This document shows, one piece after another, positions 9,575 to 26,535 of a stretch of DNA of 46,113 bases. The notes below the pieces were generated by a model. It was given only the letters and a program-made list of their open reading frames with translations. It did not search any database and was not told where the DNA came from. The stretch comes from Oscillospiraceae bacterium. Lineage in GTDB: Bacteria > Bacteroidota > Bacteroidia > Bacteroidales > Bacteroidaceae. A program made the translations under genes and the position numbers. Position 1 is the stretch's first letter. Every line of letters begins with the position of its first letter. The stretch spans positions 1-46,113 of the forward strand of contig CAVHVH010000001.1 in assembly GCA_963639385.1 (NCBI GenBank), written 5' to 3'.

Positions 9575-11071
9575 TTACAACTTCACTTTACGCTTGGCAG
9601 CCTTACTCTCATTACCCACACGGTCGAGGGCTGTCACCACATAGGTATATGCATCGGTACCCTGATTGTAAGGCATACGATAGAAGGTATCATAAGTTAT
9701 CTTCACTATTTTTGAAGCATCGGCTATGTTCACTTTCTCGCCCTTGGCAAAACGATAAACAACATAGCGGCGGGCTACATCGCCCCATTTTTTAGCTTTC
9801 GGGGCCGACCAATAGAGCATAAACCCGTCTTCTGTCCATGCATCGCCTACCTTGGTAGGCTTTTTAGGAGCTTTATCATCAAGGAACTGCATATAGGGGG
9901 GCAGAGCCTTTGACTTCCAGTACACATTACGGAGCATTGTTCCATAACTGCCCATATCTTCGGCTGCCACCTTGGCATACCAAAGTACCGTACCGGCAAC
10001 ATTACGCAACTGTCTGTGCAGACGAAACTTGGCCGCCATTTGGTGTGTTGACGCATTAGACGGATCGGCATTCTGCACTGTATTCTCAATGCTCTCGCCT
10101 ATATAGAGTGGCCGATTGGCCATATGGTTTGCCCACCACTTAATCAATGTTTCATAGTCGGCCAATGGATGTCCTATCTGCCAATACAGCTGCGGCACAC
10201 AATAATCTACCCATCCGTTGTTTACCCACAATAGCACATCGGCATACAACTGGTCGTAGTTTTGCAGTCCGTTAGTATCGCTTCCCAATGGCGAATTTTT
10301 CTTATTACGGTAAATGCCAAACGGTGAAACGCCAAACTTTACCCACGGCTTGAGGCGATGTATATGTTCACCCATTTCTTTAACAAACAAGTTTACATTG
10401 TACCGACGCCAGTCTCCACGGTCGGCAATTCCGTTATTGTATAACGCATATTCTTTATCATCGGGTATTTGACGGCCGCCTTCGGGATAGGGATAGAAAT
10501 AATCGTCGATATGCATACCGTCGATATCATACCGACTCACAATATCATCAACCACAGAGAGAATATATTCACGGTTTTCCTTGAGCCCTGGGTTGAGCAC
10601 ATACAGCCCACCATATTCAAAGGCGCGCTCGGGATGGGTATTGAGTATATGGTTGGCTGCCAGACGTGTAGGACTTTTCATGCGGGCACGATAGGGATTT
10701 ATCCAGGCATGAAACTCCATACCACGCTTATGGCACTGCTGTATCATCCATGCCATAGGGTCCCAATAGGGCGAAGGCGCCTGCCCCTGCACTCCCGTAA
10801 GATAGCGGCTCCAGGGTTCTATCTTGCTCTCATATAGTGCATCGCACTCGCCACGAACCTGAAAGATTACGGCATTGGCACCATCTTTCTCCAACTCGTC
10901 TAACTGGTGAGTAAGCATCTGCTGTATTTCGGCTGTAGACTTACCTAAATACATACCATTTACAAACTGCATCCAAGCGGCTCTAAACTCGCGTTTTCCT
11001 CCATCGGCATACATTTTTTCCGAGGCAAACAGCCCAAGAGCCGCAATCAATATTACAAAAAATCTTTTCAT
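9575..11071 (-). CDS. Glycosyl hydrolase-like family 10 (DUF187/YddW-type) secreted protein with C-terminal Fn3-like domain
   Basis: Signal peptide MKRFFVILIAALGLFA, REFRAAW, FQVR, HAWINPYR, DGMHIDDYFYPY, PQLYW, YVVTALDRVGNES; the track's 5' extension to 11233 is repeat-derived. Confidence 0.88.
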   Translation of the reverse strand: MKRFFVILIAALGLFASEKMYADGGKREFRAAWMQFVNGMYLGKSTAEIQQMLTHQLDELEKDGANAVIFQVRGECDALYESKIEPWSRYLTGVQGQAPSPYWDPMAWMIQQCHKRGMEFHAWINPYRARMKSPTRLAANHILNTHPERAFEYGGLYVLNPGLKENREYILSVVDDIVSRYDIDGMHIDDYFYPYPEGGRQIPDDKEYALYNNGIADRGDWRRYNVNLFVKEMGEHIHRLKPWVKFGVSPFGIYRNKKNSPLGSDTNGLQNYDQLYADVLLWVNNGWVDYCVPQLYWQIGHPLADYETLIKWWANHMANRPLYIGESIENTVQNADPSNASTHQMAAKFRLHRQLRNVAGTVLWYAKVAAEDMGSYGTMLRNVYWKSKALPPYMQFLDDKAPKKPTKVGDAWTEDGFMLYWSAPKAKKWGDVARRYVVYRFAKGEKVNIADASKIVKITYDTFYRMPYNQGTDAYTYVVTALDRVGNESKAAKRKVKL

Positions 11072-11097
11072 TATTGTGACGTTATCGCTTTTACACG

Positions 11098-11234
11098 GCA
11101 AAGATAATGCAAACGAGCGCAATGAAAACTTGATTTCATATTGCCGAGTGCAGCTTATCTTATGCAAAGATAATGCAAACGAGCGCAATGAAAACTTGAT
11201 TTCATATTGCCGAGTGCAGCTTATCTTATGCAAA
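11098..11234. repeat. Two exact tandem copies of a 66-bp hairpin element plus a terminal GCAAA
   Basis: Unit GCAAAGATAATGCAAACGAGCGCAATGAAAACTTGATTTCATATTGCCGAGTGCAGCTTATCTTAT at 11098-11163 and 11164-11229, then GCAAA 11230-11234. Confidence 0.95.
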
Positions 11235-11261
11235 AATACAATGATTGTAGCCTACAGCAAA
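11231..11261 (-). promoter_or_regulatory. Probable native promoter of the GHL10 gene
   Basis: Minus strand TTTG (11258-11261), 19 nt, TATTTTTG (11231-11238). Confidence 0.65.
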
Positions 11262-11334: not shown

Positions 11335-11381
11335 AAAAAAATATCCGCAACCGCCAGGTCAATAACCCTTGCGGTTGCGGA
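11335..11381 (-). terminator. Terminator after the FadL-like gene
   Basis: TCCGCAACCGC (11344-11354) / GCGGTTGCGGA (11371-11381) with an A-tract at 11335-11341 (U-tract on minus). Confidence 0.8.
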
Positions 11382-13052: not shown

Positions 13053-13958
13053 TTATCGATGACCACCACCGAAACGTCCGCCACCACCAGAAGCACCTGA
13101 ATGGCCACCGCCGAAGCCGCCACCACGCGAGCCACCGAAACCGCCTCCAAACGAACCGGTAGACATAGAACTATTGCTACGGTTGCCAAAACCGAAACTA
13201 TTCTGACGGTTAGTATTGGTATTGTTATTATTACGGTTACCAAAAGTGCGGTTAGCAGTAGACTGGTTGTTACGATTACCAAAGCTGCGGGTTCCATTGT
13301 AAGTTACGCCACGACCTGTAGATGGACGCGGACCGCTCCACGAGCGATAACCAGCATATCCACCGCGGCCACTGTAATGGGTTATATACGCACCACCCCA
13401 ATAACCGGGCCAATACCATCCACCATAATAACCGGGCCAACGCCATCCGGCATAAGCATACGGACCATACCATCCATAATAGCCATAGTAACCGGCATAC
13501 CAAGGATCATAAAATCCACCATAATACCAAGGGTCGTACCATGCCGAACGCCAATAATAGGGAGAGAAGGCATAGTTGTAGAACCATGGGTCGTAATATC
13601 CGTCCCAACGGCTCATACGACGGCTATAGGCAAAATCATCGTCAGATACGTTGGCACTGTACTTACTCACAAAGGTGGTATCTATATACACCGAATCGGG
13701 ATAGACACCATTGCCTTGTTGGAACTGGATGATGTCATTGCCTTGCTCATCGGAGCCTATCTTTTGGGTATGACTCCAATACTTACCACGGCGGTTATAC
13801 TCATCTACATCGCGGTTGCTGCCCACATAATAGGCTGGCTGCTGCGAATCAGTTGAAGTCTGAGCTTTCTTCTTCGGACTGAAATAGAGGTCGTCTTGAG
13901 CCATGACCGATAGGGACATAGCAGAAAACAACACTGCAAACATAAACAACTGTTTCAT
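13053..13958 (-). CDS. Secreted hypothetical protein, Tyr/Trp/Pro-rich middle and Gly/Arg/Asn-rich tail
   Basis: Signal peptide, QDDLYF, RDVDEYNRRG, repeated YYDPW/WYDPW, RGGGFGGG tail; directly upstream of the barrel gene. Confidence 0.8.
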   Translation of the reverse strand: MKQLFMFAVLFSAMSLSVMAQDDLYFSPKKKAQTSTDSQQPAYYVGSNRDVDEYNRRGKYWSHTQKIGSDEQGNDIIQFQQGNGVYPDSVYIDTTFVSKYSANVSDDDFAYSRRMSRWDGYYDPWFYNYAFSPYYWRSAWYDPWYYGGFYDPWYAGYYGYYGWYGPYAYAGWRWPGYYGGWYWPGYWGGAYITHYSGRGGYAGYRSWSGPRPSTGRGVTYNGTRSFGNRNNQSTANRTFGNRNNNNTNTNRQNSFGFGNRSNSSMSTGSFGGGFGGSRGGGFGGGHSGASGGGGRFGGGHR

Positions 13959-23977: not shown

Positions 23978-24086
23978 GCAAAGTTAGTGCAAACCGAAGA
24001 GAATACAAAATAAACCTGTTTATTTTTATTCTTGAGGTGCAGCCTAACTTCATGGCGAATAGACATAAAGTGCAAACCGAAGAGAA
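23978..24086. repeat. Divergent member of the promoter-associated hairpin element family, plus a partial second unit
   Basis: GCA-AAGTTAG-TGCAAACCGA-[AGAGAATACAAAATAAAC/GTTTATTTTTATTCTT]-GAGGTGCAGC-CTAACTT (23978-24050); AGTGCAAACCGAAGAGAA repeated at 23986-24003 and 24069-24086. Confidence 0.8.
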
Positions 24087-24157
24087 AGGCCAGAAGATGT
24101 ATAAAAAACATCTACCGGCCCCTTATTAGAGAATTTCTTAAATTTCCAATTCCATTG

Positions 24158-26500: not shown

Positions 26501-26535
26501 TTATAAGTGGTTTACTATTTATAAGTGGTTTACTA
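26501..26535. repeat. 17-bp direct repeat with 18-bp period
   Basis: TTATAAGTGGTTTACTA at 26501-26517 and 26519-26535. Confidence 0.85.

Follow-up and report, generated by a model that had tools for sequence, protein, structure and literature searches.

The window analysed here, a stretch of 46,113 nucleotides, carries two copies of a 66-bp sequence between the start codon of a glycosyl-hydrolase-like gene and the promoter that serves it, which raises the question of how such a sequence came to lie in a promoter box and what it left of that box. The reading we favour, with modest confidence, is that a gene-less hairpin moves as a folded single strand of DNA and is spliced into the box by a site-specific enzyme acting in trans, the lead candidate being an IntDOT-type integrase. 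A broader proposal, which we advance tentatively and regard as rather unlikely in its full form, is that the units are minimal mobile DNA of a new class, namely a single-stranded hairpin of 66 nt that mimics half an attachment site, hijacks the integrases of conjugative transposons, splices into the housekeeping promoter box and rebuilds both box and start spacing, so that the host gene survives while dozens of 5' ends are rewritten per gut Prevotellaceae genome.

The gene (9575..11071, minus strand) matched the GHL10 family (Pfam PF02638, E 3e-59), in agreement with a preliminary description of this DNA. On the same strand, its promoter consists of a -33-type TTTG (11261-11258), a 19-nt spacer and a -7 box at 11238-11231, TATTTTTG, and is thus complete over 11231-11261, as had been proposed; PMC7366714 gives the consensus for a promoter of this kind. 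TRF identified a tandem repeat of period 66 and 2.1 copies at 11098-11238, comprising, as assembled, two 66-mers of 100% identity plus 9 bp. Two further details of the preliminary description were borne out: GCAAA is present at all three junctions, and each unit ends on the minus strand in a new -7 box, this strand reading TATCTTTGC twice and then the native TATTTTTGC.

Unit borders were set by comparison across the hairpin family. Unit 1, proximal to the gene (11100..11165, plus strand), is a 62-nt imperfect hairpin followed by the 4-nt linker ATGC. Unit 2, proximal to the promoter (11166..11231, plus strand), is identical, and its linker gives the GC of the native box. To the left of the crossover, the host GC (11098..11099, plus strand) is the downstream half of the original -7 box; to the right, the host TATTTTT (11232..11238, minus strand) is the upstream half of the native box, and empty orthologues share this box and its context. 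Since GC at 11098-11099 and AAAAATA at 11232-11238 are host DNA, it is the element that now contributes the final base of the "native" box. The regenerated box nearest the gene, TATCTTTGC (11098..11106, minus strand), has the native spacing (-35) to the start codon of GHL10, and an internal one occupies the unit-unit junction (11164..11172, minus strand). The units fold end to end, as had been claimed, with z scores of -3.0 (plus) and -2.2 (minus) as DNA and -3.0 (plus) and -2.7 (minus) as RNA. The exact 66-bp unit occurs at one place only in the host genome (metagenome-assembled; 2.27 Mb, 83% complete). A second, longer family member lies upstream of an IPP-transferase gene (23980..24066, plus strand) and comprises a 71-nt hairpin and a 16-nt mini-hairpin linker, followed by a partial unit. 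This arrangement of long unit, mini-hairpin linker and partial second unit (23980-24090) recurs on contigs C5 and C7.

An ATG within unit 1 opens a 22-codon frame (11071-11139, minus strand), whose stop overlaps the GHL10 start (TAATG). The frame hangs on a variant base of the unit and may be due to chance.

The family to which these units belong is gene-less, with units of 65-101 bp, hairpins of 61-97 nt (mode 62) and arrays of 1-8 units. Among the 213 arrays parsed from all fetched DNA, 146 were single, 42 double and 19 triple; four contained four units, one contained five and one eight. In the host genome, a profile and structure scan revealed relatives of greater length, among them the one at 23980: it returned 35 matches, four of which look like chance, versus 2 in the reversed genome, and right-arm matches numbered 27 versus 0 in the control. 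A DNA search detected the family in 24 of 36 genomes of the same genus and, weakly, in 2 of 24 genomes of other families; its distribution is patchy across related genera. Carriers include Segatella copri, S. buccae, Hallella faecis, Leyella lascolaii, Hoylesella loescheii and Prevotella jejuni (among 120 of an estimated 460 stretches listed). A pattern for the longer subtype, which misses the 66-bp subtype, gave at least 10 matches in 16 of 200 genomes of the family, representing five genera, versus at most 5 in controls. Genomes contain up to 57-70 units, located at promoters of core genes; one three-contig genome yielded 57 right-arm matches versus 0 in the control. Tandems of hairpin units also occur in two- and three-contig genomes, which shows that they are real as a class.

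Orthologous loci provided the empty site. In a species with 88% protein identity, 19 of 20 syntenic loci have a single box at -38 and the same upstream context, and a relative at 92% has the box at -35, also in the same context. In the window the box lies at -167, exactly 132 nt further (-35-132). A metagenome scan returned no same-species orthologue of the GHL10 locus, the best being the one at 88%. Elsewhere, two loci (L361 and L356) are empty where L003 holds two units, and three orthologous pairs differ by one unit (1 versus 2, 2 versus 3 and 1 versus 2), the extra unit differing in sequence in two of the pairs. Thus, orthologous sites carry 0, 1, 2 or 3 units, and the variation in unit number anticipated in the preliminary description is real at the level of the family.

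In the remaining one of the 20 orthologues (L041), a tyrosine integrase with Arm-DNA-bind_5 and Phage_int_SAM_5 domains is inserted at the same box. It belongs to an integrative element (L041:906-2500) with an IntDOT-type integrase, lying in the -7 box of the GHL10 orthologue. This element brings a new TATCTTT; thus, IntDOT-type elements also rebuild promoters.

Comparison of filled and empty sites placed the insertion point precisely at TAnnTTT^GC, without target duplication. Of 82 arrays inspected, 77 had a called gene on the relevant side. In 72 of these 77, the start of that gene is on the TAnnTTTG strand, so that the unit is placed between the -7 box and the start codon served; 42 of the starts are no more than 54 nt away. 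Genes on the other side of the arrays showed no orientation bias (32 versus 29). Beyond the array, the flank matches promoters of the host genome in base profile and also scores much as they do (median, 4.7 versus 3.4 for promoters). At the end of 191 of the 213 arrays, a 4-nt linker precedes a box of the AAAnnTA type, the linker terminating in GC in 164 cases. As the loci were chosen either for their similarity or with patterns in which the box was included, these frequencies partly reflect selection; when only the left arm was used for detection, the arrays were mostly box-terminated too, among those listed. Within these bounds, the box-ended arrays and the 72/77 that face a gene start support the earlier suggestion that copies favour TAnnTTTG boxes genome-wide. 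TATCTTT was preferred (85/129 targets versus 22/162 background boxes), as was GC over GT after TTT (97/112 targets versus 287/458).

The target is a sequence motif rather than promoter function. At L383, units are present in two of seven paralogous coding cassettes and missing from the other five; as the linker there lacks the GC end, the crossover must lie within the TTT run, and target duplication is excluded. At 4 of 20 loci, units occupy a box within a REP-like repeat. A site with neither TA nor GC, within a cassette-separating repeat, is also occupied (7 filled, 5 empty); it represents one old insertion and weighs against the favoured reading. Units in a coding cassette and in other repeats thus indicate that the target is a sequence that is usually, but not always, a promoter. 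The preliminary description had proposed a selfish element that targets the housekeeping promoter motif: the element is indeed gene-less and the -7 box is targeted, but what is targeted is the sequence of the motif and not a working promoter.

The hairpin structure was evaluated in 173 distinct 66-mers. Over 24 stem pairs, 3831 of 4152 cells are Watson-Crick, 66 are G-T, 82 are A-C and 173 are other combinations. The Watson-Crick fraction was 92% versus 18-30% for slid partners, and the count of 3831 compares with 3185 ± 15 in shuffles (maximum, 3229). At least three double-sided changes occurred in 15 of the 24 pairs, and a tool-based count agreed, with double-sided changes in 13 of 24 pairs among 18 units picked by hand; both covariation counts are inflated by relatedness of the sequences. 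The stems covary almost purely by Watson-Crick changes. Features that stay fixed are the 7-bp foot, a pair of 2-nt bulges, the GA/GA tandem and an apical loop of two bases.

Wobble pairs are few on either strand, their counts do not by themselves identify the strand that folds, and the two strands have equal RNA energies. The GA/GA tandem stands in YGAR context on the plus strand in 150 and 153 of the 173 units. Among 16 distinct long linkers, 15 pair from their ends if G-A is allowed, and approximately 10 of the 16, read by eye, form G..A-closed loops such as GAA, GTA and GTTA. Such loops are far more stable as DNA than as RNA (PMC13037366). Together, the tandem and the G..A-closed loops point to the plus strand, which is antisense to the mRNA, folding as DNA.

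The favoured reading would accommodate these observations as follows. The unit sits at TAnnTTT^GC, the -7 box of Bacteroidota, and the end of its linker would restore the box. The intermediate would be single-stranded DNA with the plus strand folded. A site-specific enzyme supplied in trans would splice this strand into the box, a tyrosine integrase acting on a half site being the candidate. Exchange would involve a single strand, as for integron attC and CTX-phage sites, and would be followed by replication. The insertion would be harmless because both the box and its spacing to the start are rebuilt. Within this single-strand reading, a tyrosine integrase is modestly favoured as the enzyme, an HUH-type nuclease is distinctly less probable, and an enzyme of some other kind slightly less so again. 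The filled and empty sites, the copy-number variation, the position between box and start, the stem covariation and the preference for TATCTTT and GC are directly observed for the family.

The case for an IntDOT-type integrase rests on the target. IntDOT recognises the core GTANNTTT (PMC5812530, PMC4145004) and cuts between T and G of TTTGC, requiring GC homology and tolerating five heterologous bases beyond it (PMC2034462); the att site of MTnPi2 of Prevotella is TTGC-N5-AA (PMC4755523 Table S3). The crossover interval of the unit, the TTT run up to the G, matches the published IntDOT cut, and the unit shares target and cut position with the CTnDOT and MTnPi2 sites. Moreover, the transposon in the orthologous box at L041 has an integrase of the same domain build. 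The unit differs from CTnDOT in being a 66-bp, gene-less, self-paired hairpin found in tandem arrays and in having no recognisable arm sites. Its targets also lack the full core and the second inverted core 7 bp away that characterise IntDOT-type att sites: TAnnTTT is present, but the leading G of GTANNTTT is not enriched (30% versus 37%), nor is AA at +8/+9 (32/112 versus 133/458). The GA/GA and G..A motifs lie on the strand opposite to that which IntDOT would cut first.

No recurrent mobile gene was found near units among 130 flanking proteins or 639 clustered ORFs from 221 loci. The number of Arm-DNA-bind_5 integrases did not discriminate five element-rich genomes (17, 18, 1, 0 and 0) from five that are element-poor in the sense of being poor in the long subtype (9, 2, 12, 13 and 18). 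Two other potential signs of mechanism were rejected. The few right flanks shared between units look like orthologous or paralogous promoters rather than 3' transduction of donor flanks, and guide-like pairing between arm and target is weak.

The most viable alternative, although an unlikely one, is that an HUH nuclease of the Y1/REP or rolling-circle type cuts out the plus-strand hairpin as a single-stranded circle and pastes it at GC^AAAnnTA. In IS200/IS605 elements, insertion occurs without target duplication and the element end matches the sequence before the target cut. The unit shares this geometry: there is no target duplication, its end is the same TGC that precedes the target cut, and its non-canonical motifs are on the plus strand. 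Arm-target matching is also slightly above shuffles (84/129 versus 78.4; 66/10,000 shuffles), but only 3 of 11 units with variant arms lie in the matching box, and recognition reaches 7 nt 3' of the cut. Finally, Y1_Tnp was detected in just one of five element-rich genomes, as ordinary IS200/IS605 copies without an attached unit, and Y2_Tnp in none of the five, a result without weight as the control was silent.

A reverse transcriptase that copies unit RNA onto a nick at the box, by target-primed or telomerase-like repeat addition, would yield identical tandem units; we consider this a little less likely again. Identical tandems are common (72 of 103 neighbours), the targets resemble the unit's own end in the preference for TATCTTT, and in the host genome many arrays terminate, at one of their ends, in an incomplete unit. 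This one-sided truncation, strong in the host genome, is absent across the family and was rejected as a sign of mechanism: remnants lie equally on both sides (53 and 50), which is consistent with later decay. The stems also lack G-U wobble, and RVT_1, detected in three of five element-rich genomes, was not accompanied by a unit. A DRT10/UG17 reverse transcriptase does lie 100 nt downstream of one unit, an association that we judge coincidental: the enzyme is present in just 2 of 301 genomes, the second copy lacks an upstream hairpin, and the unit concerned is part of another repeat with varied cargo. The features of a DRT10 template RNA, a short repeat and an ncRNA upstream of SLATT in the RT operon, do not fit the unit. 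DRT10 produces protein-primed repeats of approximately 7 nt, with the ncRNA upstream of SLATT (bioRxiv 2025.10.16.682844; 10.64898/2026.04.29.721553), and the repeat junctions of DRT2 create a gene de novo (bioRxiv 2025.10.16.682844). Their head-to-tail repeats resemble the arrays, but the passages cited describe no chromosomal insertion.

Two observations concern these surroundings. An RT-SLATT (DRT10/UG17) defence system lies inside a Prevotella polysaccharide locus (L337:7118-9272). In addition, a cassette-separator-like repeat of approximately 250 bp (L431-L442, e.g., G007:C3:46800-47120) was found in 9 of 301 genomes in front of very different gene cassettes, with DRT10, glycosylation genes and others.

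It is improbable that the unit is a regulatory element selected by the host, providing a 5' hairpin or added start sites and spread by gene conversion and slippage without a dedicated enzyme. In favour of this, the unit is nearly always at a 5' end, and rare arm variants shared by some mixed neighbours are what conversion would produce. Regenerated boxes outscore chance boxes (median, 0.5 versus -3.7) and thus score between these and promoters (3.4), the window's unit (3.3) being close to the promoter median. The flanking genes, however, are functionally unrelated, occupancy is patchy among close relatives, and precise insertions occur in coding cassettes and other repeats. Least probable of all is an origin from a fold-back single-stranded promoter or primer site of the Frpo/sso type, read by RNA polymerase when folded and with priming driving the copying: at the foot of the folded plus strand, a -7-like box is indeed rebuilt in double-stranded form, with a single bulged base, but this offers no route to precise insertion, and only 2 viral-contig matches in three scans and 3 matches among 72,556 plasmid records were found. 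Matches from phage collections were discarded as they fell on scaffolds unverified as phage and carrying ordinary bacterial genes.

We also compared the family with known palindromic repeats. Integron attC sites bear RYYYAAC...GTTRRRY boxes and have a linked IntI. Like attC and the CTX attP, the unit (61-97 nt) is an imperfect hairpin with a conserved foot, fixed bulges and a variable apex, and its arrays build at a regenerated site without target duplication. In contrast to attC, it has neither RYYYAAC...GTTRRRY boxes nor a linked integrase, no IntI being found among its neighbours; its crossover lies outside the stem foot, and its copies are dispersed over many promoters. REP/BIME repeats carry a GTAG or CGTC tag at the hairpin foot, and the RAYT, a Y1 transposase, is flanked by repeats. 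The unit resembles these and the IS200/IS605-derived palindromes in being an intergenic tandem palindrome that lacks target duplication and is probably acted on as a single strand. It differs in that its consensus columns contain no GTAG/CGTC tag, it is longer, it lies in a promoter box at 5' ends and not after genes, and no RAYT was found.

BrickBuilt is a Bacteroidales MITE with promoter activity (PMC4596501), and PINSR of Prevotella intermedia is a 188-bp repeat without terminal inverted repeats (PMC4755523). Both are, like the unit, gene-less, lineage-restricted intergenic repeats of Bacteroidales; PINSR could be compared by its two primers alone, which do not resemble the unit. As to MITE-type terminal inverted repeats, the unit's 7-bp arms pair, although a linker of at least 4 nt at one end puts them out of register. 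Unlike MITEs, units show no target duplication, and no long form representing a cognate IS with these ends was seen among the listed results for 20 regions around left-arm matches. The family does not fit the MITE, REP and attC classes yet behaves like a non-autonomous palindromic mobile repeat. Rfam gave no match at gathering score for the window region or 14 other loci. A full-text literature search, which covered few subscription journals, found no description of the family, and none of four 12-nt motifs occurred in those supplements of PMC8040213 that were searched.

Other repeats were encountered alongside the units. A MITE-like repeat of approximately 300 bp with terminal inverted repeats contains a diverged hairpin unit (G000 C15:18150-18480, C17:21730-22030, C31 and C34:3660-3900); one C34 copy is precisely without it. 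At G036:C1:1470900-1476600 (L402, L409), four head-to-tail IS110 copies with a 1410-bp period lie in a REP-like palindromic repeat. The IS110 tandem beside one unit was rejected as a candidate, as it targets a different repeat approximately 100 nt away and has other ends; the IS family occurs in three of five element-rich genomes.

Among 103 adjacent unit pairs, 72 were near-identical, including the pair in the window, and 31 were mixed. The preliminary description held that regeneration of the target allows array growth. The box is indeed rebuilt in the 191 box-ended arrays, but the preponderance of near-identical neighbours indicates that local duplication, rather than re-targeting, may dominate in many. 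Both processes are likely to contribute: mixed arrays would arise by re-insertion, and identical arrays, such as the pair in the window, by local duplication. At L368:2611-2760, a unit is followed by an inverted unit at the same box, reflecting inversion or reverse insertion.

As regards the host, the 4-nt linker would restore TTTG-CA, and the native start, judged from the "-7" naming, would fall approximately on the hairpin's first base (near 11227, ±2), with possible further starts near 11161 and 11095. In many guts, human and animal, Prevotella and Segatella are the dominant genera; hairpins that vary between strains at transcription starts would constitute overlooked regulatory diversity and could confound the mapping of promoters. 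The family also highlights that the sequence targeted by IntDOT and the housekeeping -7 box are the same. The enzyme, if identified, would offer a scar-free, promoter-preserving route for inserting very short DNA in Bacteroidota.

The window contains two further short tandem repeats, at 13393-13455 and 26501-26535 (a 27-bp repeat in a coding region and an 18-bp perfect pair, respectively). Finally, the minus strand carries, after the upstream gene, a GC-rich inverted repeat with a T-run behind it (11344-11381); this terminator-like sequence would insulate the GHL10 promoter from read-through.
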